A DNA stretch of 63,319 nt, filler included, from Rhizaria sp. SCN 62-66 (GCA_001724265.1; 2 parts of 2 records of this genome joined end to end with filler, not necessarily neighbours in it); one strand, 5' to 3'. Counted from the first letter of the whole stretch, positions 4,302 to 63,220 are shown. Numbers and translations: made by a program. Notes: generated by a model not told the origin, from the letters alone.

Positions 4302-4716
4302 AACACGCTGCTGAACAACGCGAAACGCAACAAGCTCGATCAGTGTTACAAGTGTACTGAGTGACTCAAGTCAGTGATATTGCTTTTGATTCTTAGATTA
4401 TCTTTATTACTAAAAAGGAATACCTAGTCAGAATTATCAATATTTACTTATCCACCAATAAATCGCATGAGATTCGTATCTTTTCTTTTTTTCTCTTTCT
4501 TTTCACTTCTCATGACAATCTATGCCCTCGACTGAAGCGGCATTTTTGATTACGATTATAAAACAAACAAAACGTTTCCAACGTCAACACAACTCAAACA
4601 TTAAACATAAACAAACTTAAACAGACCAATAAAAACAAACAACAAAATCACCTCATCAAGACCTTAAGAACAACAATAAGTCGACCTTTGCTTCGCTTAG
4701 CATCATAGCTAAGCGC

Positions 4717-7700: not shown

Positions 7701-10691
7701 TCTCCTCGGCCGTGCCGCCACTCGAGCCCGCGTCCACGCCGTCGGCGCCGTTACCGCCCTCGGCGGGCTTGTCGGGCAGCAGGGGGTACATGGCGATGAG
7801 GTGGTCGAAGATGGCGTCGACCATCTGCTTGCTGTACTTGGGCTCCAGCAGCGTGAGCGTGGCCATAGTGCCCAGCACGAGCAGCCGCAGCTCCGCCGTG
7901 GGGCGCGCCTCCTTGTCCTTGTTGCTCTCGCGATCGTCGACCATGAGCAGCAGCCCGCGCACCAGGTCGTCGCGCCGCTTGAGCCGGAACGCCTTCTGCG
8001 TCTCGGGCAGCCGCTGCGGGTGGACCGCCTTGCCCACCAGGTCGAGCGCCTTGGCCAGCTGCACACGCAGGATCGGCGCCGTGCGCAGCGGCGCGCGCGG
8101 CGCCTTGGGGTCCGCGGGCGGCAGGCAGAGCAGAGGGATAACGTTGTGCAGCACGTGCACGTCGATGCGGCTCACCACCAGCTCCGGCGACGCATACGCA
8201 GTGATGTAGCCGTAGGCGAGCACGGCCGTGGCCTTGACCGCGTCCTCGGGGCCCGTCTCCTTCTTGGCGCCAAAGCCGAAGAAGCCGCCCGACTGCTTCT
8301 GGCCCTCTGGGGCCTTGGTGAGCAGGTCGGTGACCTTGGGCAGCACCGTGTCGAGGTGCGGGGAGGCCACCATGCCGAGGCCCTGCGCGCAGCCGCGCTG
8401 CTCCGTCTCGTTGTTGTGGTCCACGCCCTTAATCATGAGGTCCAGCAGCGAGTTGATCAGCGCGCGGTTCTGGATGCGCGACAGCACGGCGCCCAGGAAG
8501 CGGTACACCACGCGCAGCGCCTCGGCGTCCTTCTTGTGGACCGTGAGCAGCGCCGCCACGGCCTGCGCCAGCTCGCCGAGCCACTGCTCGTGGTCCACCA
8601 CGTTAACGCTCTCGCGCCACACCTTGAGCACCGTGTCCTGCCACTTGGTGACGTTGAAGCCGTCCTCGCCGGCGTGCGCCTCGAGGTGCTCGGCCAGCGC
8701 GGGCACCGTCTCGCCCCAGTACCGGCCCAGCGCGGGGTGCAGGCTCTCGGCCAGCACGCCCATCGCGGCGCACGCGTTGGTGCCGAGCCCCTTCTGTCGC
8801 GTCGGCAGCGACAGCTGCACGCACATCCGGGCCATGAGCGTCTGCGGCGGCGGCAGGTTCACTGCGCGCGTGAAGTCGATCACATGCCCGCCGGGCGCGG
8901 CGGCGTTGTCGCGGAGCTGGGCGCCGACGTCGCCGATGGCGCGCAGCAGCGCCGACATGGCGGGCGCCAGCGAGGGCTCGGGGACGAGCTCGAGCAGGTA
9001 CGGCCACATGACGGGCACGGCGTGGGGCACGCGCGTCGCGAAGACGTTGAGCGTGTGCTCCGCGGCGCGCTTGAGCAGCGAGAGCTGCGCCGTGGCCTCG
9101 TCCTTGGCGCCCGAAGCCGGGAGCTTGACGGCGCACTGGTCGACGACGAAACGCACAAGCGTCTCGCCGCCCTCGAGCGCAAGGTAGCCCTGGTTGGCCA
9201 TGGCCGTGACGAGCTGCAGCACCGTCTTGCGGATCCCCACCTCGGGCTCCGCCACCAACGTCGTCACCGCGGACATGATGATCGAGCGCCGGTCGCGCAA
9301 GACGCCATCGAGCGAGTTGACGAACTGGCGCAGGATGACCAGCGAGCCGACGCGCACCCACGTCTGCTTGATCTGGAAGCGGTTCACCACGAAGGTCAGC
9401 ACCTGGTCCGGCAGCGCGCGGCACAGGATCTCGAAGCAGCGCAGCACCTCGCCCGAGTGGCGCAGTGCGTTCGGGTTAGAGATCGGGTCCGCGGGGGGCA
9501 CGCAGATGAGCTCGTGCAGGCCGATCAGGACCTGAAAATGGAAGGAACAATAGGTGTGAGAGAAACATAGAAGTTAGATTTCGAGCGATATTCAACATTT
9601 TTTAGAAAATATGAACATGCAAATGAGAAGACGCTATTCATATAATAACAAATATGACCAAATAATAGTGAATCAATGTAATCCTATGGCGAGATATGTG
9701 GACATACCTGGTTGAGGAGGACGCCCGTCTCGAAGAAGCGGTCGGCGGACACGGCCTTGGTGAGCATGGCCGACATGCCCAAGGTGATGGGCAGGTGGTC
9801 GGCGGGGCGCTCGCGCTTGTACATCTGCAGGTAGGTGGTGAGAAGGCGCTCGAGGCGCTCCGCGAAGTCGTTGTCGGAGAGCACGGAGGAGATGCAGCCG
9901 AGCGCCTCGGCGACAGCGAAGCGGACCTTGCTCTCGGTCGAGATGAGCCAGCGCGAAAAGATGACGTCGAAGGCCGAGGCCATGTCCGAGGCGAACTGCG
10001 CCGGCGTCACACCCTGCGCGCGCGCAGCGTCGTCGGCGTCGGCCGCGAAGCCCGCGACGGCCTCGGCGAAGCGGCCGAAGGCGGTGGCGAAAACCCACAT
10101 CATGGGCGCCTTCTTGACGAGGCCCAGCACGGGGATGAAGCGCGACAGCACGTCGCGCAGGCGCAGCGTCAGGTGCACGGGGTTGGCCGCGGCCACGTCG
10201 GCAAAAGTCTTGACGACGTAGTAGTGCGGCTCAGTGCCGGGCTTAAACGTGTCGAGCAGCGCCGTGATGACCTGCGACGGGTAGGGCTGCGCGAGTGCGA
10301 CGAGGATGCCCGACGCGGGCGTCTGCCACTCGGACTTGACCTCGATGGCGCCGACCATCTCGAACGCGGCGAAGGACACGAGGTCCTTGGCGACCTCGGG
10401 GGTGATCTTGTCGCGCGCCGACTCGAGGATCCGGACCGCAATCTGCAGCAGCAGAATGCGGTGCGCCAGGTCGATCTTGTCGCCGCGCTTGGTCACGTAC
10501 GAGGCAATGGCCGTGAGGATGAGCTCGGGGTGGTGCTGCGCCAGGTCACAGAGCGCGAGCGTGATCGTCACGCGCACCGCCTCGGACTTGTCGTAGGCGC
10601 GGTCGATGAGCGAGAATGCCACGGCGTCGACCTCGCCGCCGGACTTGCGCATGTCCACCGTCACCTTGGGCTGGGAGGACTTGTCGGACAT
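4717..10691 (-). CDS. MROH1: Maestro heat-like repeat (MROH1/HEATR7A-like) HEAT-repeat protein, ~1825 aa; exons 10691-9708, 9531-7492, 7323-6619, 6465-4717
   Basis: Four minus-strand ORFs are joined by phase-0 GT-AG introns (9707-9532, 7491-7324, 6618-6466). Family-like motifs: 'PHYYVVKTFADVAAANP', 'EVLRCFEIL', 'MWPYLLE', 'GCAQGLGMVASPHLDTVL', 'QRVVATAMLAEF', 'WTRIRANAA'. TAA stop. The start Met is uncertain because an acceptor-like CCCACAG at 10736-10730 suggests another upstream exon. Confidence 0.8.
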
Positions 10692-19800: not shown

Positions 19801-22800
19801 TACCAGCCGCCGTAGTCCATGAACTGGCGCAGCAGCTCCACGGCCGGCTGCGCGAAGTAGCGCTCGCGCGCGGGCATGTTGAGGTCGTCGACGAACACCA
19901 CCGTGCGCTTGCCCACGGGCGGGCCGTAGAGGCGCGCGCGGCGCTTGGTGAGCTTGGGGAAGATGATGTCCTCGGTCTGGTTCGCCGTCGTGGCGGCCGA
20001 GAAGGTCAGCGTGATGGGCTGGAACTTGTCGGGCAGACGGCCCAGGTACTGCATCACGTTGACGGACTTGCCCGTGCCGGTCTGGCCCGTGAAGAGCACG
20101 TGGCGGCCCGCCTTAACGAGCAGGTCGAGCACGAAGGTCGCGCGCACCGAGTCGGCCGTGGGCACAATCACCTCGTGGCTCGTCAGCCGCGGGTCCACCT
20201 CGAACGCCGGCTGCGTGTCCATCCACGGCACCCAGCGGCCCAGACGCGCGTCGAACGTGTAGTCGTACACCAACGCCACGGCGCCCGCGCCGGGCACGGG
20301 GCTCAGCGGCGAGAAGCCGTGGGCCGCCTCGGCGGCGGCCTCGAGAGCCGCGCGCACGGGCGCCTCTGGCGGGCCGGCGGCCGCAAGATTGGCCGACTGC
20401 AGCAGCAGACGCAGGAAGTTGGAGAACTTGGCGCGGCCGGCGCGGTCTGTGGTGGCGCCGATGGACCACACCAGCGACAGGATCACGTACGACACAATCT
20501 TGTCCTTGAACGCCGTGCGCGCCTCGTCAGCGGAGACGGAACCCTCGCCGTTGCCGTTGGCGCCAGCGCCGGAGCTAGAGCTCGAGCCGTCAGCGGCGGC
20601 GGCGGCAGAGGTGGCGGAGACGGCGAGCGAGCCAACCTTGGCGGTGGCGGCAACCGCGAGCGTCTGTGAAGCGCGGCGAAGCGCCAGCGGACTCATCATG
20701 TCAGGGCCCGGGACGTCGGCCGAGGCGCCCTGGGTCCAGTTGATGGAGCCGTCCTCGTTGAGCGGCAGGTGCGGCGCCATGAATGCGTCGAGCAGCCCCA
20801 GCAGCGAAAGCACCAGGTTCGAGTCCACCGAGGGCACGGGCTCCTCGACGCTGCGGCGGCGCACGAACGCCAGCGCGGGCTCCACCAGCGCCTCGAGCGC
20901 GGCCGACAGCGCGGGGCGGACCGAGTTGAAGACGGGATGCAGGCGCTCAATCCACGAGCGCAGCAGCGGCGCGATGCCCATCGCCGAGGGCTCCAGGTAG
21001 ACCATGCCGCAGCGCGACACAGTGGCCGGGGACGCCACGGCGAGGTCCTCGACCTCGAAGACCATGCGCATCTGGTTGGTGAGCTTGAGGATCTCCTGCG
21101 AGACGAGGCAGAGCTTCTTGTTGTCGTCGAGCACGGTGTTCATGTTCTCGATCCAGAGCGCGTCGACGGGACCGTCGAAGACGACCCACTGCCAGTGGCG
21201 CGGGTCGGCCTCGGACTCGAGGATGCACTCGCGCACGACGAGCGCGATGATGCCGTCGGTCCACTCCTTGGAGTTGGTGTCCAGGTCACCGTAGAGCTGC
21301 GCCATGGTCAGCGCCTTGGGGTTGATCACACGCTCCTCGACGCGCATGAAGCTGCCCACGCCGTGGAGCCGGTTGAGAGCGCCCGCCAGCACGGCGCGCG
21401 CGCATGACTTGCCGCCGCCGGCGGGGCCGACGACCATGAGGCCGTGGCGCACCACGGTCGTCTCGTAGATCTGCACGCACTTCTGCGTGAAGGACGGCAC
21501 GGGCTGCAGGCCCTGTTCCTTGCACGTGAGCACGATAGCGTTGAGCAGCGGGCCGAACTGCGCCTCGGGCTTGGCCACCGAGGGGAAGAGGTCGGCGATG
21601 ATACCCTCGAACAGCGGGATGTCCTGCTTCAGGAACTTGGGCATGTTGACATCGAGCAGCGCCTGCAGCAGCAGCGCGTCCTCGTCCATCGCCGGGTCCT
21701 CGCGCTTGAGGATACCCGCGCGCGTGATCACAGTCTTGACGGCGCGCATGCCGTAGTCGTAGTGGTCCTGCGTCGAGAGCTGCTCAGACGCAAGCTTGAA
21801 CGTCGTCACCATCTTGCGCGCGAGCGCCTTGGCGGCGTTGAAGCCGAACGAGTAGAGCATGATCTGCGCGATGAGCGCGTAGTCGGGCACCATCATCGCG
21901 ACGGGACGGAAGAGCGCCTTGAGGTTGTCGGGCAGCTCAGTGCGGCCCGCGTAGCCGGGGTTCATGGTGACGAAGACAGCGCACGTGGGCTCGAGCGCGA
22001 TCTCGGCGTCCTCGAACGTGAAGTGTGCCACGCCCAGCTTGACGGCCTCGTAGATGGTCATAATCTGTTGCGCGACGACGGAGAGCACTTCGATGTCGAT
22101 ACGGTTGAACTCGTCGAAGCAGGACCACGCGCCCGAGGACGCCAGACCCTTGAAGAACTTGCCCATGGCGAGGTAGTTGAGCGCCTCGGAGCAGTTGAAG
22201 ACGACGCACTGCTTGGCCACGGCCTTGGCCAGGTCCTTGACGGACTCGGTCTTGCCCGTGCCGGCGGGGCCCGCGGGCGCGCCGCCGAGCGAGAGCGACA
22301 GCGCGGTCATGAGCGTCATGTAGCAGCGGTCCGTCAGCGGCGTGATGACGAGGCGCAGCGTGTTGCCGAGGTACTCGTAGCCGTAGGGGAAGCGCGACTG
22401 CACCATCTGTACCCACAGCTGCTTGTCCTCCTGGTAGTAGCGCATCTGGCAGATCCACTGGAAGTCGGTCGCGGCCGAGACCTTGGCCTTGACGAGCGAG
22501 TCGACGATGTCGCGCGCGTGCACGTCGAGCACGATCAGCGCGCCCAAAGTCAGCGAGAGCAGGTTCGTCAGGTTGCTGCGCACCAGCTCGACGAGACCGT
22601 TGAGCTGCTCGCCGAGCTTGGCCTAAAGATTGAGAGATAAAACAAATCAATAACAAAAAGATAATGAAAATGAGTTAAAATGTGCACAAAATAGATAGAA
22701 AAAACCTCAATGCAACTGTTACTCGAGCGAAATGCGTTCATGTGCGTACCTGGTAGCGCTGGATGCCGGAGAAGCCCTGGGTCTTGAGCGCGGCCTCGAC

Positions 22801-31625: not shown

Positions 31626-31725
31626 NNNNNNNNNNNNNNNNNNNNNNNNNNNNNNNNNNNNNNNNNNNNTTAATTAATTAANNNNNNNNNNNNNNNNNNN
31701 NNNNNNNNNNNNNNNNNNNNNNNNN
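31626..31725. other. Artificial scaffold spacer: 44 N + TTAATTAATTAA (31670-31681) + 44 N
   Basis: Exactly 100 nt and symmetric. The self-complementary 12-mer places TAA in all six frames, as in standard contig-joining linkers. Confidence 0.95.
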
Positions 31726-31824: not shown

Positions 31825-32168
31825 ATGTTTAGCTTCGTACCCCTGACTCAAGCTGGAGGGTGACATTGCATTTTGACAGATTACACCATAGTAGTATAGG
31901 GTAGAAGCGGACTGTGACTCACTTGGGTAAAATCTTCTACTCCATGACCGTCAACAGCGACCGTCAATCTAACAGTACGACATGTTGTTTCGAACTTGGA
32001 TTGTATTGATGTGAATACATGATTGAAAAACAAGAGAATAAAAGAATTATACGTCAACAAATACACTAAAGCAACATTATTAACATCGAATATTAATATT
32101 AGTATCTAATCTAAACCATCATACTTTTACTGTCAAGTCAATGGTCTTATTGAGCCCACTCCAACATC

Positions 32169-39367: not shown

Positions 39368-40369
39368 ATGCTGAGCAAGGTCCTTGCACGCTCTTCCCGC
39401 AGCGCTGCGCGTTGCGTTCTCTCTTCCTCCGCGACTGCGTTCACGATCCCGTCGTTCGCGATCGCCCCTCGCCACTCTGCGTTTGCCTTCTCGACCTCGG
39501 CCTCGGCCCCCGACGCCGCCGCCGCCGACGCTGCCAACGCAAACGTGTGCCTTAAGTCGATCCCTCTGTCCAAGATTATTGCCGACCTTGAGCTGCACAA
39601 GTCCGTCGCCAAGACGCTCGACGCGCGCGGCATCACAACCCCCGCCCAATTGGTCGCACTCAACAAGAAGCAGTTCCTCGAGACGGTTCCCGACCTCACC
39701 GCGCGTAATCTGCTCAAGGCGCACCTCCGCGTGCTTACGGGCCGCCCGCTTGCCGCGGACTCGGAGACGCCCGAGGAGGCCGAGGCCGCCGCCGCCGCCG
39801 CCGCGCCCGGCCCCGCAGAGGTCGCGGCCGCGGACGCCACTGCTGCCGCCGCCGTCGCCAACGCCGCCGCCGAGACCGCTGCGGCCGCCGCTTCCGACGC
39901 CGCTGCTGCCGCCGCCGTTGCCGTCGACGCTGCTGCCGCTGCTGCTGCCCCCGCTGCTGCTGGTGCCGCTGCTGCTGCTGCTCCTGCTGCTGCTGCTCCT
40001 GCTGTTGCTGCTGCGGCTGCTGCTGCGGCTGCGGAGCCCGCCGTGACTGCCGCGCAGGCCGCGGAGACGGTGCTGGTCAAGTCCGAGCACGAGGCGGCGA
40101 CGCAGACGGTGGCGACGTGGCTGGAGCCGCTGAAGATGCCGCAGTTCTTCGACGCGATGAAAGACGGCAAGGTTACCGAGTGGCACGTCAAGGTCGGCGA
40201 GCGCTTCGACCGCGGCGCGCCGCTGTGCGACATCGAGACCGACATCGCCGAGATCACGTACGACGCCGCCGAGCCCGGGTACCTGAACGAGATCCTCGTG
40301 TCGGTCGGCGAGACGGTGCGAATTGGCGAGCCCATCGCCGTGCGCGCGCACACCGAGAAGCACGCATGA
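39368..40369 (+). CDS. Predicted mitochondrial protein, 333 aa: presequence + small helical (SAM/HhH-like) domain + Ala-rich linker + C-terminal biotinyl/lipoyl-like domain lacking the acceptor lysine
   Basis: The C-terminus 'LKMPQF.DAMKDGKVTEWHVKVGE....G.PLCDIETDIAEITYDAAEPGYLNEILVSVGETVRIGEPIAV' follows the E2 lipoyl-domain consensus, but has ETDIA where ETDKA is expected. N-terminus is rich in R/S/A/F. TGA stop. Confidence 0.75.
   Translation: MLSKVLARSSRSAARCVLSSSATAFTIPSFAIAPRHSAFAFSTSASAPDAAAADAANANVCLKSIPLSKIIADLELHKSVAKTLDARGITTPAQLVALNKKQFLETVPDLTARNLLKAHLRVLTGRPLAADSETPEEAEAAAAAAAPGPAEVAAADATAAAAVANAAAETAAAAASDAAAAAAVAVDAAAAAAAPAAAGAAAAAAPAAAAPAVAAAAAAAAAEPAVTAAQAAETVLVKSEHEAATQTVATWLEPLKMPQFFDAMKDGKVTEWHVKVGERFDRGAPLCDIETDIAEITYDAAEPGYLNEILVSVGETVRIGEPIAVRAHTEKHA
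39780..40060 (+). repeat. GCC/GCT trinucleotide-rich tract encoding a poly-Ala/Pro linker
   Basis: Imperfect (GCY)n runs translating to [35 protein letters not shown]. Confidence 0.8.
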
Positions 40370-47412: not shown

Positions 47413-48082
47413 GAGATGTGGCCTGAAAAGCGATCGGTAAGGAGCGGAAACAGGGAAAAGATGAGCCAAAAGGTCAGGCAAATTGCCAAAAGGGAACTGT
47501 GCGCGTTCAAAAAGCAGAGTCAGTGTGGCAGGACAAGAAGGACGGCCTTGAAAGGTGTTGCTCCTCGTTCAAAAGGAGCTTCTTAGCAATCTCCAGCGCG
47601 GATATTCCGACACTCTGCACGCAAAAAATTAAATAGACCAATACATCTCTAATGCACAGCATCAATACAAGTGCCCGAAGCATATAAAATGGCATACTGA
47701 AGCCGCAATCTTGAAAATGAATCCAACTATAGCTCCTGCCTTCGTTCGCCTCGTTCGCCGGTTGGACAATTTTTGCGAACCGCGGTCGAGCGACCGAGGA
47801 GCAAACGAGTGAGCTTGTCAAAAATAAGGAGAGACGTCGCGCGAATCTTTGGGGATATTTCACCACGTGGGCATCCGTTCGATCGCCATTTAAAACGACT
47901 TTTGGTTTTACCGCGCAATCTTGTTTAACATATCAATGCTCTTAACGCTCTATTGAGCTTCACATGTCAGAACATGCTTTTCTTTTTAGACTGCACTCTC
48001 CCTGCGTGTCGCTCTCATTGTATAACTTTCAGGGATCCTTTATGTCGTTTTCTGTCACACTTGATGCTTTTCTTTAATATCC

Positions 48083-48410
48083 AGTAGTATCCGTATAAGC
48101 GGACTATAACTCACACGAACAAAAATGAGCTATCGCATCGTTCAATGCGCGCCGGCTGTCATGCTGGCTTATAAGAAGCGCAACACAAACGTCGTTGTCA
48201 ATCGTGTGCTGGCTGGGGACGTTAGCCTTTACACAATTGTTGGCACTGACCCTCCCGCAGTTGTGGGAGCTACCAATGAGATTAGCCTTAGCCAGGATAT
48301 GCTGGTCGATGGTATGGTCAGCGTTCGCAGTCCCGGGCGTCACGCTGATGACTTATGCGATAGCTCATTTTTGTTCGTGTGAGTTATAGTCCGCTTATAC
48401 GGATACTACT
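48083..48410. mobile_element. 328-bp non-autonomous DNA transposon (MITE) with perfect 56-bp terminal inverted repeats and ATCC target-site duplication
   Basis: 48083-48138 (AGTAGTATCC...GCTATCGCAT) is the exact reverse complement of 48355-48410. ATCC flanks both sides (48079-48082, 48411-48414). No transposase-like ORF inside. Confidence 0.88.
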
Positions 48411-48636
48411 ATCCACAACGTCACTTTATGTTTTGTGCCTATAATTGTCTTTTTGTCTTGAAAACACCTTTATTTACGCAGCAGACGCTAAGAAGACTCA
48501 CCTCACTCCATTGCCTTTCTTTTTTTCGCCTTCGCGCACACCCCTCCCCGTTGCGTCTGTCACACTCCTGCCGTCGAACTAGCTGCCCTGCTCCTCCCCT
48601 GTCTGTCCTCCCACGACGGTCGTCCGCCGCACAGCC

Positions 48637-51600
48637 ATGGCCGCCTCAGCGCTTCCCGTGCGACTGTTTGCGAGCGCGCGCCTGGCGCTGGCTCTGCTTG
48701 CGCTCACGGTTGCGACACTGCTCACTTCGGTGTCCGCGCTCGTGGCGCAACTCCCGCGCGGCAAATACGCCCGCTACGATAACCAGTACATCGCGACCGG
48801 TCAGCAGTCGTTTTCGATGTATATCTTGCTTCCGCACGCATATGATGCATCTATTCAGCGCACAGGCACCTTCAAGCTTACTCTTGCCACCCCTGGCTCT
48901 TTTAGCGCTACATCGACCTGCAGTATGGTTTACGACACTGGACATGAAGCAATCCTGACATACGACAACGGTGGCTCAAATCTTCCGCTTATGATTGCTT
49001 TTTCCATGGCTGTCCCGATCGAAGTGCCGCCGTCAGCGCCCTTTGTCGTCAAGTGCTTCGCTGAGTGGCGCACAACATTCGAATCTACTTCCATCAGCTC
49101 AATCTCTGCGACTTACGAGTTCTTCTTCACCTCTGGGCTCGCGTACACGACATCGACATTGAACGCAGCGGTCGAAGAAGTCCTTTCTGGTGACTTTGGC
49201 GTCAACGTGTTTGACTACACTCCTGCATTTCTGAACACAGATGTTGGAGTTGTGGGTAACATTGAAAGCTCAACTAGTACCAACAACATGGTCGCTCTTT
49301 ACGTTGCGAACCAGCAGGAGAAGCTCTACCGCGGTGGTCCTGGAACGTACTGCACTGTAGAAGGCACACCTAACGAGGCCAACCCCGCCGGTTTTGCAGT
49401 GTCAGTAGCCCCGCTTCCAGAGGAGGAGTCCCTGTTCTATGTCGGCGCATGCAAGTTTCCGTTTCACACGTTGACTTTCCACGGTGACAACCTCCAAGGT
49501 CCTTTTGTGCTGAGGGTCTCGATCTATATGCCCAATGCGCCCACCACAATTACTGCGTTCGCAACGACCAACACGGTCACGCGCCTCATTACTATCTCTG
49601 GATCTGCTGGCGTCACCATCAAGCCCCTCTCGCGGTTTTCGTCTAACAGCAGTCGTCCTTACGCCGTCACGGCATTCGCCAGGCTCGGAGAATACACCCC
49701 GCAGCGCCGCTTTAGCGCCACGCTCCCCGGCGGCTCTGTGATCGGGGCCAACCTTGACTGGTACTCGTTCCAGCCCCGCGCCTCGCTCACGCCCGACGCT
49801 GCGCGCCGCTACTCGCGCCCGCGCCCGCGCTACCTGCAGGCACAGGCGACCGCCGCGGCGGCCGCGCCCTCACTCGGCGCGCTCAACTACTCCACCGCAG
49901 GCCAGCACGTGTTCTGGTTTGGCGGCATCGCGGTGACTGACGAAGGCTTCATCGGCGACACCGACGCCGCCGTGCCGCTGCTGGCCGACCTGTGGATGGT
50001 CGACGTGCTCGGCAACACCACGACGCTGCTGTCCGGCGACCCTGCGCGCACAGATGAGCCTGCTCAGCTGCCGTCGTCCACGTACACCCTCGTAACGGGC
50101 GAATATCACGCGCGCGTCCGCCCCGCGGCGCGGCACTCGGCCGCACTCGCGTACGACGCGTCGACGCGCACAGTCTGGCTCTACGGCGGCGCGCTCAAGC
50201 CGCTGACGTCAGCGTTTGCGTTGACTCAAAAGCTTTTCAGCGACATGTGGTCGTTCAGTCTGGACCGGATGCAGTGGGCGTGGTGGCTAGGCACGACGAC
50301 GCCGCAGGCGCGGCCGACATCGTCGACTGTATTCGGTTCCTGCCCGCCGCTTGCGGGCGCCAGTATGGTTGCGCACGATGGCTCGCTGTATCTCTATGGC
50401 GGTGCGACTCTGGCTTCTACTGTGCACTCCGTTGTGTATTCGATGTATTACGAGATGGATCACGTCTGGCGCTACAACACGACGGATCGGGGCGCAACTT
50501 TGCTCTACGGCAGCACTGGCTATATTGGTTACGGTACTATTGACAACACAGTGCCGCCGCAAGCTACAGCCACTACGCCTGGCTCCGCAGCGTACGCGTC
50601 CTTGACCGCCAACCCGCGCGAAGACGGCACTCTTGTTCTGTACATCTTCGGCGGCGTCCTCAGCCCCACGCCGCGCTTTGGCTCGATGATCGGCGGCGGC
50701 TACAACGCCGCTCCGTCGCACTCCGACTCGAGCGTGCTTGCCACCCTGTGGAGCTTTACGCCGGGCCTCACGCCTTCCCTGTCGCTGTGGACGCGTCTCA
50801 GTGTCCCGCCTGTCGCCACGGGCGGCAACCGCGGCATCCCGCGCCTCGTGATGCCGACGCAACAGGACGTCCCAGTGCATCCCGGCGGCCGCGTGTTTGC
50901 CGGCGTTAACGCTGCGCCCAACGGCGACGTGTACGTTTACGGCGGCCGCGGTCACGCTGCTGGGTTCCTCGTCCGGCGCACGGCTGCAAAGGATTCACCT
51001 CTCTCGCTGATCAACGTTGAGCCCGTGTCGCCCTTTACATTTCCGCTTGCGGGGCGCTTCACCGGCGTGACTGAGATTGACGCGACGTCGACGCACGCGT
51101 TTATCTATACGCGCGCCGAGTTTCTGGCCGCGGGCTGGGATTTGAAGACGCCGCTGAGCCAGATGGACATCATGTTGCCGTCGTCGATTAACAACGTGCA
51201 AAGTCCCTTTTACAGCTCAGACAAGTTCATCGTCTACGCAGCGCTAGTTCCGACAACGCTCTCTGCGTTTAATAGCACACACGATTCGAATTACGTCAAG
51301 AGCACGATTGCCAATTTGGCGATGGCAAACGCTGTTCCTGTGACTTTTGAGGGATTACGATGGATGAACGGCGGTTACTTCACTCTGAACAATGCAAAGG
51401 CAGATAAGATGCCGCTCCTACTTCCAAGATCGACAGAGAACATTATGCTTGTCATGCGCGTGATATATGATTCCGCGATGAGTTCCACTGCACAGACTGT
51501 CCCGACGTTTGCGCTCGAGATGGAGTCCTGCGACGCTGAGGTTAGTATCTCCTTCCTCTCCGACGCCGTTGCTGTCAGCCCTGTTCTCGACACCTTTAAG

Positions 51601-54600
51601 CGCTACAACCAGCGGCCCGCAATGCTTCTCCGCTCCAATCTCCCCTCGATGCCGTGGACGATCCCGCTGATGTCGCGCTCCGCGCACGCCGTCGCGCAGC
51701 TCGACGACCTGTGGGTGTACCGCGTCTCCACGTCGGCGTGGGAAATGATCCAGGCCTACGGCGGACCCGTGCAGCGCACTGAGGACTCGAATCTTATCGA
51801 ATCGCCCCGCGCGTCCCCGTTCAGCTCGTTCTCCAAGCACTGGCCCGGCGCGCGCCTGCAGCCTGCGCTGCTGCTGCCGACTATGCACGAGACGTTCGGC
51901 GGCGCTACGAACGCTGATATCACCGTGTTTATCTACGGTGGCTACAGTCTGCGCCCGACGGAAGCGGACGACCGGAGCGCGCTTTTGTCGCCGACGCTGG
52001 ACCGCTGGCCCAACCACTACAAGATTTTCACGGTGCACGATGACTTGTGGAGCATTGATCTCGCCGCTGAGTGTATTGACAGCACTGCGCCTGGTGCGTC
52101 GTTTTGTGCGCCGGCCGCAACATTCGGGTCGAGTAGTTCGCTCAACCCGTTCGTCAGCACGTGGCACTCTTCCCTGTACAAAGCACAATACTTTAACACC
52201 CTGCACGAGTCCGGAAATACGTGTAGCATCGAATCGGCCCTCTCTTGCGGCAGTGGCATGTGTGTTGGCGGCGGCGGCGGCTACTTCTGCAACTGTGACG
52301 ACTACGCTGATCAGGTGACGCTCACGTGCAAGGAGGGCAGCTCGTTCAAAAAGGCGTTGTTGACGCCGATGCAAGGCTGGACTACGTTCGACTATCTCGA
52401 ACACTTCAACCCTTTTTCGGCTGTTGCAATGCATCCCGTGTCAAAGGAAATCTACACCTACGGCGGCCTGTCGCTGCAGGGCACGGCGAATGCTTTTGTG
52501 TCAGGAAAGCTCGCCAAGATCAACCTCGCCACGCAAATTCGCACGCTTATCTCGTTTGTGCGCCCCACCAACGGCGTCGACCAGCATGAGGTCACGCAGA
52601 ATCTCGTTCCCTCCGCGTCCGGCACCGCCGTCACCTTCGGCGACACCATGCCACCCGCATCGTTTGAGTCTCACGCGTGGTTTTCCCCATCTGGCCACAC
52701 CATGTTCCTCTTCGCCGACAGCTTCTTTACTGAACCCGGTGTGTGGGCCTACAATGTCAGCGCCAATACGTGGCTTCGCGCTACTGCGGTCACAACGACG
52801 TACCCAGTGGGAGACTATGGCTCGTTGTGGGGCTCTCCAGGCGATTATAATTCTACTTATCATCCTAGTGCGCGTCAGGGCTTTGCTAAGGCGTCGTTCG
52901 AGGGTCTCTTCTGTCTCTACTCGGGCAAGCAAGTCGTCTTCAACAACGCACTCGCCGGTATCAACACTGATCTGTGGTGTCTGAAGACAGTCGAGGGTCC
53001 TATTTCTCCTGAGTGGGCCATCATGGCGGGCGGAACTGAGATGCCCTCGGTCAGCACGTACAGGCCCGTTGCGGGCGCGTACGGCGAGTTTGACGCCAGC
53101 TTCAACCCTGGCCCGCGTCTGGGCGCGTCGATGACGTTTTCTGCTGATGGACAGTTTCTTTATCTCTTTGGTGGCAATCTCTATGGCGATTCGTCCCTGC
53201 CGTCGGTGGCGCTCATGTCGGATCTGTGGGTGTTTAGCATGAGTACCCGCATGTGGGCTCTTCTTGCTGGGCCGATTGAGCACGCTGTGCCTGGCTCCAC
53301 GTACGAGCGCTCTCATTACGCCGTCAACGGCTCGCCGTCGCCGCTGCAGTACCCTGGCGCGCGCATGCACGCTGCAATGCACATGACGGACGAAGGCCTG
53401 CTTTACATTGGTTTTGGTCTCGAATCGGCTAACAGTGAGACAGGATATTCTGAAGTTAGCAAAGACTTGTTTGCCATTTTCGCGCCCCAGCTTCACGTCT
53501 CTGGCTGGACTCCGTCTTCAAAATATGACTTCGCGCCGACACACACCGTGGGGTCGCCTGACGCGGCATGGATCTGGCTTTCCGACAACAACGGCGGCAT
53601 TGAAACCCCGCTCGAGTTCCGCTGGAACACAAATGGCCAAGGACGGCGGATGGGGGCGCAATTTTTGATGCTGCCGAGCTCGCTTGGCTCCGCTGATGGG
53701 TCGTTCATCCAGAAGTCTGGTGTCTTGCTGCACTCGACCAGTGCGATTTACAGCTTTGTGGCGTTGCCGATGGAGACCAAATACCCCTTCTTCTCATTTA
53801 ACTCGTTTACGACTGAAACTCAAGGCTTTATGGCGATTACGAGCGCTTGCCGCGTGAACCCGTGCGCCAACAACGGCGAGTGCCGTGTGTGCAGTGGAAT
53901 TAGCGGTGCATGCTCTCCCAATGAGATGAACTCTGTTGGTATCACGAGCTCGTTTTACAAGTGCGTGTGTCCTGCTGGCTTTTATGGCAAGCACTGTGAA
54001 GTTACAATCTCGACCTATATTCCTCCTTCAGCCGTGAGCAAGATCGAGTGTCCCACGGGCTCACCGCCTTCATCCATGCTTCTCGTGCCTTGCAACTGCG
54101 CCCAAGGCACCGCCGGTCCGCTGTGCTCGCCACACGTCACTGTGGCCATCATGTCTTCCGACGCCACAAACAACGGCTTACCGGGCCGCGTTTTTTCCGC
54201 AACAACGCGCGCGCACAACATCTCTGGCGAGCTCCCGCTGCTGCTCGGCGCCCAGTCCGGCAGCTCCGTGCTGTTTATGTCCGGCGGCTACACGGACACA
54301 TCCAGTGAGCAGATGTCGGCCTCCATCATGGCCTGGCTTGTCGACTCGCGCACGACCGTTATGCTGCACACTGAGCCTAAGCCGATCGGAACCGGTGCTG
54401 CTGTGTTTTCGGGCGCCAAAACCACTCCTGGTCGACACTACGGTGCGTCTCTCGTCTACGCGCCAGGTGCAAACATGTTATTCTTGTTTGGTGGCGTTGT
54501 CACTGTCGACGCGAGCACGCGTGGTATCTTCGAGCGTCTGTGGCGTATCGTGCCCGGCGAGGAGAACTTGTCGCCGTTACCAGTCATTCTCTCGCCCAGC

Positions 54601-57600
54601 GCTAACTACCTCGTTGCCTCGCGTGGGTACGAACTGCTAAGTCCCGAGTCTGTCATTTCGGATGGACTGCATTCCTACCGCCTCACCGATGACCACCCGC
54701 TAGGCTACCCGGGTGCGCGCGCGTTCCACGCCGCTGCCGTGGTCAACCTCAACGGCGTTGAGTGGATGTACGTCTACGGCGGTGCAGGCAAGCTAACTGG
54801 TAATTCCGTTGGCTACCGCGCTGATCTGTGGAGGTACCGCATCGATGGCACTAATCCCAATTTCACCTGGGAGTACGTCGCCTGCTCTCTCGCTTACGGC
54901 TATGACGTGACAGCTCACCCTGCCTCGACTTTCGTCGCGTATGCTGCGGCCTACAACTGTCCCGTCGCTCGTGCGCGCGCGCAGCTTGTTGCCGTCGGCA
55001 CGAAGCTCTGGCTTACCGGCGGTCTTGGCACCAAGGGCCCGCTTGATGACGTGTGGGTGTTTGACGCGATTGAAGAGTCGTGGACTCTCGTGTCGGGTGA
55101 ACCGAACCGCGCTGACGCTGCGAATACTCTGTCGCACAATCGCCCGAACCTTGATGCGACGAGCATTAGTGACCGCAAGATCGGCTCGCGCTACGATCAC
55201 TCGTGTGATATTCTGCCGGGCACTACAGAGATGTACTGTCAAGGTGGTATGACAGCGCAGGGTATGACTGCGGATTTTTTCCGTTCGACTCAGCCTGTAC
55301 AGCTGTCCCAGGCTGAGCATCACCCGTCGATCATGTCGACTTCTGTGTATGTGCCGTTTCATCCACAAGTGCTCGGTCTTGAATCGCGCATTGCGACATT
55401 TGTGTCGGTTAGTGATCTTAACATGGCGGGTCTCATGCCCAACATGGGTATTTCGACTTTTTCGTTTTATTTTGCGCGGCCCGTTGACACAAATCTGCCC
55501 TTTTCTTTCAGCTTGACTATTTCGCTGCGTTTTGTCACTTCTTAGCCCACGGGCAGTCTCTTTAGCATTGGTACTCAAGATGCTGTGACTACCACGGTTG
55601 GTATTGCGGACTTTAGTAATGATGGACGCACTCTTACCTTCCAACTCGGCAACGACACTGGAGTTACGTATACGCGCAATTCGAATCATGTGGGCCTTAT
55701 TGTCGGAATTAAAATCTCGTCCTCCAGTGGCTATGTGCGCGAACACATGGCGTTGGGCTACTCCACTGATAACGAAGCCGATGCAACTCTCACTGTGTTT
55801 AGTGGCACGCGTACAAAGCCCACACACATTGCCGGAATCAACGTCTGGGAAACGAATCTCGCCCCGCAGTTCCGCCTCGGTCTGCTGCCGCACCATACGC
55901 TCCAGGGCCATTCAGCGTCCGCTGACGTGTTCAGTATCAACACTAACACAAACGTGATTTCGCGTGTTCTCGGTGCGCCAACCATCACATCACCCGCGCA
56001 GGCTATCATCACGGATGCTCTCCGACCCGCTTACTCTGCCAGTACTGCGCGGTCCGACAGTGTGCTCGAGTCACTTGAGCTTGGCTTCGGTTCACATGCG
56101 ATTGGCACCAACGGTGTTGATCCTGAAGTCACCACGGAAGCTCTGTACATCCGCCATATTCCACGGCCCGCGCTTGCAGCGCATGCATTTGTCTTGATGC
56201 CCACGCTCTCCAACGAAACGCTTCGTTTCATGACTGTGGGCGGCCGCTGGGCTATGGAGACTCCCATTGCCGGCTCCAACTCTTCCGGCTTTGAGATGAT
56301 TGTGTCGATGACAGCGCCCTTTACAATGCCGTACAGCTAGATTTACTACACGAACCCGATGCATCTCTACTCTGGACGCCGTCCTGCGCACGTGCCGGCT
56401 AACGCTCCCCAGGCGCCCAAGCCCTACTTGGCGTTGGCACGCTTCTCTTCGCAGATGACCTCTGTGGACTTGACATTTACGCGCGCCACGCAACAGCCGC
56501 GCGAAACAACGGCCGCGTCGAGGGAGAACTGTGAAAGGCTGCTGAAATCTGAGACATTGGCTCTGCTTGGTACTGGTGCCGTATGCTCATGGAGCTCCCC
56601 TGCCGTGTTCACGATTAAACTTGGCACGTCTTTTGAGATACGGCCTACTCTCAACTCGGTGTCTCTTCGTGGTGGTGTTGTGCGCAGTGAAACCTTTGTT
56701 TCGGATGATCCTGTGAACTACCTCGATGCAACAATCCTTGTTGTCAGCGCTTCAGACACCCCCGTCACGCCGACTGTTGCGCTGCGTGGTCTGTCGAAGA
56801 TTGGCCCATGCGAGGCCTTCACACTGAGTTCGAGTGACAGCAGCAACTCCGGAGGACTTGCATTCTGGTACTCATGGAGCTTGTCGGGCACGCCTGAGCA
56901 GACGCTTGCATTCGACGAATATATTATTGCGACTTACGGTGGTGCAAACTCCAATGCGCCATTCACGGCCACTTCGTCGCCACTGTATGCACCGACGTTG
57001 ACGTTGTCCGTTGAGAATCTCAACACCATTGTGCCGATGGGCATGTCGGCAATCTTCTCATTATCAGTTCGTTCGTGGTTCGGCTTATCGTCGATCAGCA
57101 CATTCTCTTTGTTCCGCGACAACTCTGTCCTGCCAGGTATTGTTATTGCAGGTAGCAAGGAAGTTGAGACCAAGCCGCCGCGCAATTTGCTCATCAATGC
57201 GCTTATCACGCGCGTTGGGATTTGCTCTGGCGCACAAGAGCGCGCGACCATTTCGTACACGTGGGAGCAGATTCTCTCCGGCGGTGAGCAGCCTGTCAAC
57301 TCGACCCGCAGTCTTGCGTCGCTGCGTGTGCGCGCGTACGACATGCCCGCACGCACTGCACCGTACATTTTCCGTGTCAACGTCTCTGATACCAACTACA
57401 CCAATTCCGACACGGTCCGCGTGCAGGTGGTTGCCTCTGCGTTGCGCGCGGTTATCACTGGCGGCGACAAGGTTCACAGCAAAGATCGTGATCTTTTGAT
57501 CTCTGGTGCGCTATCTCGTGATCCTGACGTGAACCCCGCTGTTGCGTCTCAGTACGAGGGACTCATGTATACCTGGTCTTGCGCCAACGCTCTGCTGAGC

Positions 57601-60600
57601 AACGTCACCAAGTGTTTTACCAACGATGTCATTCTTACACTCAACACTTCGGTGCTGACCGTACCGCAAAGTGCAATGCTTGCTAATGTGCTGGTATCGT
57701 CGTCGCAGATGTGGACACTCGCTGTGCGCAGTGCCGACAACCGAACTGCAACAGCGCGTACACGGATTGACTTGGTCAACGCTGAGCCTGCCTACACTGT
57801 CTCTGTCTCGGCGCCAGAGCGTTCGCAGTTGTTGCAGCAGAACAATGTCATTCTTACGGCCACTGTAGCGCGCATCAACAACGTTCCCACGGCCGCGGAC
57901 GAGATTGAGAAGCCGCTGTCTCTCTGGAGCTGTGACACGCGCAACGCCAATGTGGATGAGCTTGGTATTGTTCTTTACTCTGCCTCGTCCCCGGCAACAG
58001 ACGGCTCTGGCAATATGGTGCATACGCTGACGCTTGCTGGCGATAAGCTCGCTGCTGGTGTCCCGTACACGTTCCGCTTCTCACTGTTCTAGCACAACTA
58101 CACTACGATCGCTTCTCTCCCTACGCAAGACGAGATCCAGAACTTGCCTGTCGGCGCACTACCTGACGAGCTCATCTCCGCGCACGCGTCCTTTACTCTT
58201 AACGTTCCTCCGCGCTCCGGCGTGTGTGTGCCTGTGTTCGCGAGCGCTGAGTCAACGGAGGTAACAAAGGCTGTGTCTGACGAGCCCTTCATGTTGCAGT
58301 GCACTGGCTGGGAGGACGACCCCGAGGACTTGCCGTTAACATACCACTGGTACGCCGAGTCCAAACGCGTGCTTCATGGCGCGGTCAAGACGAACTGGGT
58401 CGAGATTGGCATGGCGCTACCTCTGTCATTGCTCACCGCTACGCTGACCGCTGGCAGTCGCGACGACGGGTACTCTCGCGTTGTTGCCGTGTATATTACC
58501 GACGCCTGGGGTGCGCAGACGCGTGTCGAAATCACGGTGCCGTTCTCGGCTCCCAGTGCTTCTCTGTGGCATGGAGGGTACGCTCCACTCAACGCTGCGA
58601 ACGACCGCATTGATGCGCTCTTTACGCAGCTCGCGGCGTCTGTCGATCTCGCTGATATTGCTGCTGTGTCTCAAACCGCGCTGCGCATTACAGAGGCACT
58701 TGACGCTGCTGCTATTACTGCTGTCCAGAACGCAGAATACCGCACCCAACTGCTCGCAGTTGTGCGTAGCGTTGCCGAGATGCTTTCGCTCTCGCAGGAC
58801 GCTCGCCGAGCTGTGGCTGCGCTTGATGGCGTTGGGGCTGAGCCTGACAGCGGCAGTAGCGAGGCTTCTGGTGAGATCCACAATGCTTTCCTGACTATGT
58901 CTGGCTACTCTGAAGTCGCGATTGAGCTGTTAACGCAATTGTGCGGTGACGGCGCGCATCTCAGTGGTTCTGCGCGCACGGAAGCGCTGCAGTTCCTAAT
59001 TGGGCAAACATCTTCGCTTGCATCGCTCGATGCGTTCTCAGGCATGCAGACTGCCACGGCGGACTCGGCGCTTGTCGCGACGCACGTCATTCTCGACTCC
59101 TTCGTGGCCGATATTGCTGCTGTGAACCACAACACGACGATGCCCGCTGCTGGCTCGGCCGCCGCCAACACAACTGCTGGCGCGCACATGCTTGCTCTGC
59201 GTGCGGAAGTCGACGCTGTCATCAACATCGTCGCGCAACAGCTCAATGTGCTTGCAATGGGCGCTCTTGCGCGCCAGGCTGTCGGGCAGGACGCCACTGC
59301 AGTGTCTTTTGGTGGGATCTCCGTTGTTTCGCAGGGCGTTTCGACGCTGCACTCGCCGAGCAGCATGGCCGCCAAGATGCCCAACGCGGCCGGGGACGAC
59401 AAGCCAGCGCGGATGACGATGCCGTCGTCAATACACGCGCTCAACGCCTCCGCGCTCCAGGTTGTTATGGCCATGGTCAAGGAATCGTCGCTCTTCCATC
59501 TCGCTGGCTTGGAGAGCGAGAGCTACCTTAACAGCTCGCAATCGTCGCCACTTATCTCGTTTACCGTGTTCAACCGCGCGCTCGCGGACGTGGATGAAAT
59601 GACTGTCGGTGATAACGTCACGGTGCCCGCGCAGCAACCCATCAAGTTCAATCTTGCTGGTAGTGGCACTGGTGGCTACATCATTCCGGGCCTCCCGTTT
59701 GCCACGCTGGCTGCTAGTGAGGGTGAGTTCTTTACACTTGAAGTACCGCACCCTGCACCTGCATGGCCCGACGTCAACTTTGTCTGCGAGTGGTGGGACG
59801 CCAACGACAATGGCGTTGGCGGCAAGTGGAGCAACGCTGGTTGCGAGCTCGTTGCTGTCGCAGACAACAACCGTACGACAACTTGCCGATGCACGCACCT
59901 GACTCTGTTCCGCGTCCGGCTTGACTTTAACAACTTCCTCCCCAAGTTCAACACGCTTGACGCAGATGACTTTAAGAACCTTACGTGGGCCAATATTCAT
60001 GCGCATCCGCTGCCTCTCATTACGTGCGGTGTCTGGTTTGGCGTGTACCTCGTATTTGCTTTCATTGCAGCGCTTATTGACCGCCGCAAGGACGCGCGCG
60101 CGCTGCGCCACTACCACGGCGAGTGGAGCGACCCGCAGCGCAAGCAGTGGGACGCCGTCACGGGTGACACTTCAGCGTCGCTGCCGTCGTCGGCAATGCT
60201 CAACCCTGATGCTGGTGTTGAAAAAATGGCATTTACTGAGCGCTGGATTGATCTCTACAAGCACTTAATGAAGCATGATCATCTCTGGCTTTCGGTCATC
60301 CTGCGCTATGACACGAACGCCTTTTCCTCGGTTGGCCGCGTCACTGCGGGCTTTGTACTCGTTCTTACGGGTTACATGATCAACGCGCTGTTCTTTGGTA
60401 GCTCAAACGGCAGCGTTGGCTTTAGCACGTTTGTGACTTCGATCATCTCCGCCGCCATCCTCATTCCTGTCGGTGTGCTTATTAGCTTGCTCTTCGGCCG
60501 CTCACAGCAGGGTCGTCTCAAGTCCGCAATCTACGGCTATGCGGAGCACGTGGCTCAGCTTAAGTACACAAACCGTATTTCTGAGTCGCAGTTTGCAACG

Positions 60601-62157
60601 CGCAATGAACACCACATGAAGCGCAACCCTGTCATCAGCGACGAAGACGAGCGCGTGCTATTGCACTCGATTGCGCAGGCTGGCGGCTGGACGCATGGTC
60701 CTGGCAACGCGCTTATCCCCGACAACGCCCGCGGTATCCGTGACGAACGTGAGTTACGCAACCAGCTTCGGCTGCTCGTGCACATCGACTATGATTTGTT
60801 CATGGTCTGGTTCCGCGAGTCATGGTCGTTCCCGCTTGGTCTCCGTCTCTTCGGCTTCGTGCTGCTCTGGATCTACGTTATTGTGCTTGCGCTGCTGATT
60901 ATCGTGTACGGCATTCAGCTTGACAGGAACAACAGCGATAACACCAAGGAGTGGCTGCAGGCTTCCGCAATCTCCAATGTCATTGAGATCTTTGCAATGA
61001 AGCCCGTCACGATTTTCGTCAAGGCTTTCATGCTTCTCGTTCTCTCGTTCTGCTTCTGCAGTGGCAAGCCTAAGGGCCCGGCGTCCAAGTCAACTCCCGA
61101 TGACAACCTAACCGTATACAGCGCCATTGAGATGTTCGCCGGATCTGGCGCTGGTAGAGGCCACAAGCACGTTGCCACGGATCTCGAGCTCGACACCGGC
61201 GGTGCGAATGAACGTGACGGCGCTGTTGCCGTTCTTGTTGCCGGTGCTGGTGCTGGTGCTGGCGCTGCGGGTCCCTACGGCGACAATTACGACACTGCTT
61301 ACAACGGCTTTCATAACGGCAACAACAATGCTGCATTTAACTCGTCCGCGATTCCCCATTCGTCATCATCGTGGCACGGGGCTACTGCGTCTGCGCCTGC
61401 TGCGATTGAAATGACTCCCATCGGTCCTCGCAGCAACGCACGCACTGGTAACGACGGGTACGCTCCCGTGCACTCGCTGCCCTCATCACCTGCAATCAAC
61501 ACCCACGGTCTCGCGTACAACGATGACAGTAGCAATAGCAACAACACAAATGACAATGTGGCAGACGACTGGAACACCAGCGCTGCCTCCGCTGACGCTG
61601 CTGCTTCCGCTGCGGCCGCTGCCACTCTTGTGAGTATTAGCAATGCGCCTCCGGCTTCTGCTCAAACGTCGTCTTTCTCCGTGTTGCCACCGCCAATGCC
61701 GCGCTCTGCCGCAGCATCTGTATCGGCGCCACCGCCCTTGCCCCGCTCCGCTGCTGCTTCCGTGTCTGCGTCTGCATTTGCGACGTCGCCGCCGCCACCG
61801 CCGCTTCCGCGCTCTGCGGCCGTGTCCATGTCCGGCGCCGCTGGCGGCCCGCCGCTGCCGCCGCCAGTGTACATGTCCGCAACCCCAAGCGGCGGGCTCA
61901 CTAGCTCTGTCACTTCGAACGACACCGCTGACTACGACCCGTCACGCGCGCCTGTGGTGCCCGCGCTGCCGGCGCCGACGGGAGGTCTGCCGGTAATGAG
62001 CACGCGGTCGACGCAGGCGTACCAGCAGCGTGAGGCTGCGGTGTCGCAGTCAGCGCAGCGGGCACCGATGCCATTGCCGAATCACATCCCCAATGAGTAC
62101 GCACTCTCACGCACGTCTGATGGTGTTAATAACATCAATCATGGACAGCAACAATAA
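48637..62157 (+). CDS. Giant polycystin-1 (PKD1/REJ)-like surface receptor, ~4506 aa if three in-frame TAG codons are decoded: signal peptide, multiple kelch-like propellers, EGF repeats, REJ region, GAIN/GPS, ~5 TM helices, Pro-rich tail
   Basis: ORFs 48637-55545, 55585-56340, 56359-58092 and 58144-62157 share frame 1 and are separated only by single TAGs. Kelch motifs (LYGG, LYLFGG, DLWVF); EGF 'CRVNPCANNGEC...CVCPAGFYGKHCE'; REJ-like 'LRAVITGG', 'SRDPD', 'YTWSC', 'NVPPRSGVC', 'CTGWEDDPEDLPLTY'; GPS 'CEWWD...WSNAGC...CRCTHLTLF'; polycystin TM-region motif 'HLWLSV.......FSSVGRVT'. TAA stop. Confidence 0.8.
61687..61870 (+). repeat. Three imperfect tandem copies of PPP(M/L)PRSAA(A/V)S(V/M)S in the cytoplasmic tail
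   Basis: Translation of frame 1: PPPMPRSAAASVSA / PPPLPRSAAASVSA / PPPPPLPRSAAVSMS, followed by GPPLPPP. Confidence 0.8.
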
Positions 62158-63220
62158 GCAGACGCGACTGTTAGTTTTAAAGTAATTCATTGTCAGGTTA
62201 TTTTGTTCTTGTCTTTTACAATCATTATTGCTTTTTAAAATTTCTTTTGTTCACGTTTGTTTGAATCTATTATCATGTTTCTGTGTACGTACCAAACCAG
62301 ATGTCTTTTGTGATGTAATGTTGTTAAACCAAATTGTTTTGAACACCTGCAGTCACTTATTTACCGTGAATGGTGTTATTTGTATTCGAGAAATTTTCGT
62401 AATCCTCGCTAATCAGTCATGCCTGTGCATTGGTATGCACGTGTACACTGTTATTGTGTGTGTTTTCTCTATCATTCAGACATGTATACTGGAGAAAAAT
62501 TTGTATATCATCAATATTTTTTGTTAAATCTTTTTTTGTGAAGGTCATAGTATGTTCTATTATGTCATTCAGAGAAAAACATCATTCGTTAGCTTCACCG
62601 GTAACTTATTTTCTGTCTAATGTCGTGTTATGATGATGTCCATCGTCAATCGTTAGAGCTGTGCTGTGCTGTGTTGTGTTGTTCCGTGTTGTTTTACACT
62701 AGGAACACTCGCGCTTGATCTGCTATTTGCAGTGATATGAACTCCGCCGTCATCATTCTCTCTTGTAAGACGTTACTAAAAGTATATTGCTCCTGATGCA
62801 TGAGATCATATTTCTTTGCTTCGCACTTTCAAAGATTGTTACACGCAATTTTTTTATCATTCTGATGTTTGTTATGTTTGATTTTTTGTTCCTTTACGAT
62901 ATTACTTGTCCCGCGTCTACCTCCATCCACAATCTGTTTGTGTTACGAGTACAAACTGATCAACTTGGGTAGCTCGCAACAGATGTTTTCTTCAAGCTGT
63001 CGCTCTCGGAGTGCGCATAGAAAACGTATGAGAAACATCCTCTCAAACACTTACTCATTCGCACGACATTTAATCAATAAACACTCCTTGTTGTAAGTCA
63101 TATCACACAACCATACTTCTGTGTCTCCATTCTGTGTCCAGTAATTTCTCGCTTGTGGGGTAAACTTACAGCGCACAACTTCGCGAGCGAACTCATCTTT
63201 ATGAAGTTGTGTCGGCAGGG

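Follow-up and report, generated by a model that had tools for sequence, protein, structure and literature searches.

Does the organism behind the assembly of Rhizaria sp. SCN 62-66 (GCA_001724265.1) translate UAG? The question is raised by a stretch of 63,319 nucleotides (the window, which here always means the whole of the DNA that was analysed, filler included), in which the long open frame of a receptor gene is crossed by three TAG codons and by no other lesion. UAA and UAG are almost always reassigned as a pair, and few lineages uncouple them; the earlier note on this DNA had proposed such an uncoupling, with UAG as a sense codon and UAA and UGA as stops. The analysis described here favours that proposal in a wider form, namely that UAG is decoded as sense or efficiently suppressed, perhaps at an early stage of its capture, and we put the probability of this at roughly 0.65.

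The reading frame and its TAG codons

Translation of frame 1 of 48637-62157 on the plus strand gave 4,506 residues and a closing TAA; the internal stops number exactly three, each of them a TAG. The positions concerned are as follows.

48637..62157, plus strand: receptor gene, one intronless frame from the ATG at 48637 to a TAA, encoding a Kelch / REJ / GPS / multi-pass membrane receptor
55543..55545, plus strand: TAG1 (codon 2303), next base C, context LRFVTS-TAG-PTGSLF
56338..56340, plus strand: TAG2 (codon 2568), next base A, context TMPYS-TAG-IYYTNP
58090..58092, plus strand: TAG3 (codon 3152), inside the REJ domain, next base C, context FRFSLF-TAG-HNYTT
62155..62157, plus strand: terminator TAA, next base G; P0190 and P0003, both homologues, terminate at the corresponding position or close to it

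The three TAGs in a single frame were found at the coordinates that the earlier note had given for them, and its statement that the gene has no frameshift and no internal TAA or TGA was borne out by the same frame-1 translation of 48637-62157. The remaining five frames across the same 13.5 kb carry 65 to 256 stops each, which puts the open frame of the receptor far beyond chance. The hexamers that follow the in-frame TAGs are CCCACG, ATTTAC and CACAAC in the window gene and CAGTCG in a related gene described below (L001). No downstream hexamer common to the four is visible, in agreement with the earlier remark that the sites share no readthrough motif, and C is the next base at three of the four sites (P = 0.038 for at least three of four being C, from first-position base frequencies).

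A second gene with an in-frame TAG

The same feature is present in a second gene. A probe made from the receptor-family alignment found a single locus, L001 (7,153 bp), among metagenome contigs, and no relatives in the genome contigs or in the viral contigs. The gene on L001, of 1,794 codons, encodes the homologue P0004. Under the standard code its open reading frame (ORF), 921-6050, stops at the TAG at 6048-6050; past this TAG there are 112 more GC-rich codons with the C-terminal motifs of the family, then a TAA at the homologous end and an AT-rich untranslated region. The 112-codon tail is 73% identical to P0003 and 71% to P0204, whereas the 112 residues that precede the TAG are 53% and 65% identical, respectively, to the same two proteins. 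The ORFs of P0003 and P0204 begin near residues 1060-1095 of the family. The context of this TAG, PQPQ-TAG-QS, is at most a faint hint at Gln. L001 also contains two AT-rich GT..AG introns, at 465-594 and at 867 to about 1005, and the first of these lies close to the position aligned with TAG2, where the window gene is intronless.

Stop codon usage

No gene examined ends in TAG. Among 14 gene ends (13 in the window and one in L001) TAA accounts for 11 and TGA for three, so that UAG is never a terminator while UAA and UGA are, in a sample that is small and would have little meaning were TAG to serve as a stop only rarely (about 5%); three of the ends, those of ORF 3132-4301, the lipoyl ORF and ORF 46589, are without homology confirmation. 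Within the limits of this sample, the gene ends agree with the proposal of the earlier note. Both the L001 TAG and the lack of TAG ends served as tests made after the finding had been selected, and both favour decoding. The base that follows the real stops is G in 10/14 cases. As a separate observation, TAA ends 11/14 genes despite a G+C content of about 90% at third codon positions.

Authenticity of the TAG codons

The window derives from a bioreactor or wastewater metagenome. Contigs of four other public runs (X2-X5) were compared with it over 48000-62800; X2 is from a separate study of 2025, and X5 is a poly(A) metatranscriptome library that may contain DNA. Pieces from X2 span TAG1 (53614-55613), TAG2 (56210-57350) and TAG3 (57920-58931) with the sites unchanged, and differ from the window only at 54523 and 58064. 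Contigs of X3 and X4 span TAG1 (55401-56307), again unchanged, and since the rows for these two runs are identical they may represent a single data set. An X5 contig (56069-56384) carries TAG2 unchanged, unspliced and unedited, and stretches of the gene to either side of the TAGs are represented among the X5 contigs. No indels were listed across the receptor gene in the four runs and no base differences at the TAG sites in the contigs that span them. Joints were listed nowhere in the gene for the X5 contigs; the three that were listed across it are of low support (sides of 21-26 letters), belong to DNA contigs of X3/X4 and do not fall at a TAG. Gene callers split the same ORFs on three contigs, and look-ups of protein clusters turned up no strain in which a TAG is replaced by a sense codon. 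Base-call error as a source of the TAGs is ruled out by the agreement of the contigs from other runs at these sites.

The G+C content at third codon positions (GC3) is 0.67-0.77 through TAG2 and TAG3, with the periodicity unbroken. Around TAG1 (about 55330-55780, ~450 nt) the GC content drops to 0.43-0.50, a dip that is not intron-like and over which homologues align throughout. Genuine introns here, in the dynein gene, the maestro-like gene and L001, are T- or AT-rich GT..AG blocks of about 125-200 nt. Introns over the TAGs are ruled out by GC3, by the homologue alignment and by the RNA-library contig over TAG2. The absence of an AT-rich intron-like block, which had been claimed at the outset, therefore holds. 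Introns and base-call errors have been excluded; A-to-I editing, one of the alternatives in the earlier note, has been excluded at TAG2 only.

Homologues and the residues opposite the TAGs

The TAGs are flanked on both sides by homology to uninterrupted relatives. In a HMMER scan with residues 2133-3322 as the query, the matches to which include the window's own three pieces, P0002 (3,754 amino acids (aa), 45% identity) and P0003 (3,391 aa, 44% identity) each gave one continuous alignment over query positions 2-1176 that covers all three TAGs, while P0004 (56% identity) and P0007 (39%) span TAG3. In-frame UAG with homology to either side, as in UAG-only codes, is thus found at the three window sites and in L001. 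A further homologue, P0190, is an uninterrupted protein of 4,671 aa that aligns to window residues 38-4506 and is 100% identical from about residue 4000 to the end, 95% identical over 3751-4000 and 35-62% identical upstream. By this pattern P0190 is either encoded by the same organism, as a paralogue, or a chimera in which assembly has fused two paralogues. The near-identity of the last ~750 residues is worth recording in its own right, as it suggests that gene conversion has acted between the paralogues or that the sequence is such a chimera.

Opposite TAG1 the family alignment has W, E, L, V or T, opposite TAG2 A, G or S, and opposite TAG3 P, S, N, R, P or A, the last straight after an invariant 'SLF'. 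Each TAG fills exactly one alignment column, which excludes introns and does not indicate the residue, and with all four TAG sites variable the encoded amino acid is not readable from the alignment. Gln or Leu had been named in the earlier note as most plausible; that choice came from precedent, and the variable sites lend it nothing. The ratio of nonsynonymous to synonymous substitution rates (dN/dS) against L001 is 0.065 in the GPS and membrane-spanning region and 0.23-0.36 elsewhere; together with the conserved L001 tail this indicates long-term constraint, with which a very recent inactivation is still compatible.

Is UAG translated?

We infer translation of UAG from these observations, and with it the decoding agent and the early stage, in the following form. 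The receptor gene would be a functional, intronless gene of 4,506 codons, in a GC-rich, flagellated host with mitochondria that lives in wastewater or bioreactor communities. UAG would not be an effective terminator in this host; UAA, as the main stop, and UGA would terminate its genes, and at UAG the ribosome would insert an amino acid, presumably by means of a tRNA with a CUA anticodon or of a very efficient near-cognate suppressor. Use of UAG would be sparing, confined to unconstrained positions of weakly biased paralogous receptor genes and absent from strongly biased housekeeping genes, and this sparseness would fit early capture or an ambiguous intermediate stage. The narrower suggestion that capture is in progress, UAG having already been lost as a terminator and now being decoded and reappearing at unconstrained, weakly biased sites (perhaps still favoured before C), is a tentative one and somewhat more apt to fail than to hold.

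A number of points weigh against translation of UAG. No TAG is present in 10,072 codons from ten other window coding stretches, a set that includes the dynein, COPA, bystin, aminotransferase, maestro-like HEAT and phosphodiesterase-like genes and ORF 2-3055, so that widespread use is not seen; among the 13 window genes tabulated the receptor gene alone is known to have an in-frame TAG, the smaller genes lying outside the codon count. This is unlike the published UAG-only lineages, in every one of which UAG is widespread as far as the portions of the accounts drawn on here extend. P0190 has no in-frame TAG in 4,671 codons. All four TAG sites are variable in 6-8 homologues (S or A at the L001 site), and the family is multi-copy and fast-evolving, in which pseudogenes are expected. 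Nonsense changes amount to 2.5-3% of point mutations here, and TAG is the product in 57% of the possible ones, which makes three TAGs out of three weak evidence (P = 0.18) and takes most of the force from the argument, implicit in the earlier note, that every internal stop is a TAG. ARAGORN found no tRNA genes in the window. In X5 depth is present in the TAG1 and TAG3 bins yet no listed piece spans either site, and the X5 contig over TAG2 may be contaminating DNA. The GC3 of the receptor gene, 0.67, is far under the 0.88-0.96 of ten neighbouring coding stretches (the L001 gene has 0.77), and the join between the receptor and its left neighbours crosses a high-copy repeat. Other assemblies break at this repeat, so that linkage to the genes in which stops were counted rests on a common repeat family. 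The gap in GC3 may itself reflect a steep codon-bias gradient in one genome or false adjacency at the repeat join.

Codon bias bears on the first of these points. CAA makes up 28% of Gln codons in the receptor gene and 5.6% in the biased genes, and with such a bias three uses per 4,507 codons might predict only one or two in 10,072 biased codons, which explains part of the gap to the published UAG-recoded lineages. The claim of a sense UAG with UAA and UGA as stops has therefore gained from the L001 TAG and its conserved tail, from the lack of TAG at gene ends and from the exclusion of introns, of base-call errors and of editing at TAG2, and has lost by the lack of TAG in the other coding stretches and by the variability of the four sites; it is probable and not proven.

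The alternative that survives best, unlikely as it is, keeps the standard code and takes the genes for decaying paralogues, the receptor gene being a young pseudogene or a carrier of nonsense alleles, the TAG of L001 a recent truncation and UAG an ordinary rare stop; the finding would then be an ordinary one. Multiple copies of the family would be present in one organism, as the C-terminal identity and upstream divergence of P0190 suggest, the GC3 of the receptor gene is low beside that of its neighbours, TAG is the commonest possible nonsense product, and every TAG stands at an unconstrained position with none in the other codons counted. The two single-nucleotide differences between runs affect a first and a second codon position. 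Decay should leave lesions of mixed types, however, and the four disabling events, spread over about 6,300 codons (4,506 + 1,794), include no frameshift, no TAA and no TGA. Indels that shift the frame usually match or exceed nonsense changes in frequency, and on an assumed frameshift:nonsense ratio of about 2, taken from the pseudogene literature, four TAG events out of four would have a chance of about 0.001 under decay. This absence of other lesions is a stronger argument than the fact that all the stops are TAG. Decay is also opposed by the tail of L001, which follows an independent TAG and shows higher conservation than the stretch preceding that TAG, by the lack of TAG at the 14 gene ends and by the presence of poly(A) RNA library contigs before as well as after the TAGs.

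Readthrough under a standard code, whether programmed or dependent on context, with near-cognate tRNAs making UAG ambiguous and not reassigned, is improbable. C after a stop is the leakiest context in eukaryotes, and it is C that follows most of the in-frame TAGs and G that follows most of the real stops; L001 moreover has the arrangement of a textbook C-terminal extension. With three leaky stops in succession in a message of 4,506 codons the losses would multiply, though, and the sites have no downstream motif in common, nor does any gene examined terminate at TAG. That the TAGs are assembly errors, or are altered or removed in the mRNA by short in-frame introns ending in TAG or by A-to-I editing to UGG, is scarcely credible: pyrimidine-rich stretches do precede TAG1 and TAG3 and genuine introns here end in TAG or CAG, but homologues align residue by residue across every TAG, the 'SLF' directly before TAG3 is invariant, the GC3 periodicity is intact at TAG2 and TAG3, and X5, with no joints in the gene, keeps TAG2, which largely refutes removal at that site.

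Comparison with known codes

Within the portions of the sources drawn on here, UAG-only codes are described for the rhizarian exLh (Leu), Iotanema spirale (Gln), Scotinosphaera (Ser) and Protocruzia tuzeti (Gln), and among phyllopharyngean ciliates once with Leu and twice with Gln (PMC5304391, PMC11687900). In exLh 384 UAG were counted in 71 genes, the codon being rarest in ribosomal protein genes, and the terminators were UAA in 56 cases and UGA in 15 (PMC5304391). Between 78 and 91% of genes carry UAG in the phyllopharyngean ciliates (PMC11687900).

As far as these accounts go, the present case is like the UAG-only codes in having in-frame UAG in otherwise intact coding sequence and no UAG terminators in the window or L001. 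It is like exLh in the dominance of UAA over a minor UGA (11 to 3 here, 56 to 15 in exLh) and in the depletion of UAG in strongly biased genes. It is unlike the UAG-only lineages in that the codon is ~100x rarer, with 3/4,507 in the receptor gene, 1/1,794 in L001 and 0/10,072 in the others. In contrast to the ciliates and the fornicate Iotanema, the window host has a GC3 of about 0.9, spliceosomal introns, an axonemal dynein and genes for mitochondrial proteins, the last being a mitochondrial-type ribosomal protein L12 and a lipoyl-domain protein. The ambiguous codes (Condylostoma, Parduczia, karyorelicts, Blastocrithidia) are alike in that a stop is read as sense and context may matter; there, however, the codon also terminates and is abundant inside genes, whereas here it ends none of the 14 genes and is very rare inside them.

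Full-text searches of the literature, supplements aside, turned up no account of a code with UAG alone recoded in a GC-rich eukaryote from wastewater, and none of UAG capture that is incipient or at low frequency. To our knowledge an early stage of UAG capture has never been observed in a natural nuclear code; all the examples known so far are mature and carry the codon in the majority of their genes. If UAG is indeed translated here, this would be a known kind of code change at a stage not previously described. The order of codon loss, release-factor change and tRNA gain has so far been argued from theory only, and such a case, with UAG gone from gene ends and present a few times per ten thousand codons at unconstrained sites alone, would provide a direct test between codon-capture and ambiguous-intermediate models. 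It would also mean that incipient code changes escape the usual screens, for which many in-frame codons at conserved positions are required. The receptor itself has been split by gene callers into four proteins in public databases.

Architecture of the receptor

Pfam scans were made at E <= 0.01 and, together with a hydropathy scan of the whole protein, gave the following features.

48649..48753, plus strand: N-terminal hydrophobic segment, signal-peptide-like (aa 5-39, hydropathy scan)
50107..55098, plus strand: repeated Kelch-type beta-propeller matches, in the first ORF piece (aa about 491-2154; Pfam PF24681, PF24981, PF13418, PF13964)
57241..58563, plus strand: REJ domain, unbroken across TAG3 (Pfam PF02010)
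59782..59910, plus strand: GPS motif (CRCTHLTLF), in the last ORF piece (Pfam PF01825)
60007..61068, plus strand: five membrane-span-like hydrophobic segments (aa 3791-4144, hydropathy scan)

The two scans agree with the earlier description of a coherent receptor that runs from an N-terminal signal-like segment to membrane helices, hydrophobic segments being present solely at the N-terminus and after the GPS motif. TAG3 had been placed inside a REJ-like region, and the PF02010 profile does flank it: positions 11-290 stop four residues before TAG3 and positions 303-418 restart 29 residues past it. All five membrane-like segments lie downstream of the three TAGs, so that truncation at any of them would lose the anchor. 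The membrane region is also the most conserved part of the family, with 84% identity to P0003.

The order of REJ, GPS and membrane spans is that of REJ receptors, and the protein is like polycystin-1, sea-urchin REJ and PKDREJ-type receptors in its REJ domain, in a GPS motif with C.C.HLT and in a multi-pass region after the GPS. It is unlike the polycystin-1 type in having five hydrophobic segments only, and residues 3153-4506 gave no match to the PLAT, PKD-channel or 7TM Pfam families, in contrast to the PLAT domain and 11-TM / channel-like C-terminus that mark the polycystin-1 family. The propellers match the Pfam 'Attractin/LZTR1 beta-propeller', which likens this part of the protein to attractin-like Kelch ectodomains. 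The close relatives are all metagenome proteins.

A repeat upstream of the receptor gene

The high-copy repeat referred to above lies just upstream of the receptor gene and resembles a miniature inverted-repeat transposable element (MITE).

48083..48410, no strand assigned: MITE-like element of 328 bp with perfect 56-nt terminal inverted repeats

Depth over the element is 114-222 as against about 6 in the gene, in three runs ~20-35x the level of the gene beside it, and the contigs of other runs break there. The 22-mer end of the repeat is also present in L001 at about 6695-6730, and a copy with three mismatches lies at 31901-31922 of the window; a probe with the 22-nt repeat gave no matches in the genome contigs and none in the viral contigs. 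The common repeat makes it most likely that L001 and the two halves of the window come from the same organism or from closely related ones.

Neighbouring genes

The other genes of the window were recognised with Pfam and tblastn.

4717-10691, minus strand: maestro-like HEAT gene, with introns
13872 to about 27200, minus strand: inner-arm-type dynein heavy chain
39368-40369: lipoyl-domain ORF with a long Ala-rich linker and the lipoyl domain at the extreme C-terminus, ending in TGA
Elsewhere in the window: aminotransferase; mitochondrial ribosomal protein L12; Pop5-like ORF; bystin; COPA; phosphodiesterase-like gene

No catalytic E2 domain was found downstream of the lipoyl ORF at the Pfam threshold of E <= 0.01, COPA has no named relative above 44% identity, and there were no Rfam matches in the window or in L001. 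In the protein atlas bystin matched generic fungal clusters and the GPS region a cluster with mostly viral labels. Several other TAGs border ORFs of the window: those at 9686 and 22625 sit in ordinary introns (the dynein gene has one at 22623-22749), that at 27356 lies upstream of the dynein homology, and those at 46542, 39353, 11572 and 3129 adjoin ORF starts. Between the Pop5-like ORF and bystin there are two runs of 44 N each (31626-31669 and 31682-31725, 88 N in total), which represent a scaffolding gap or a masked stretch.

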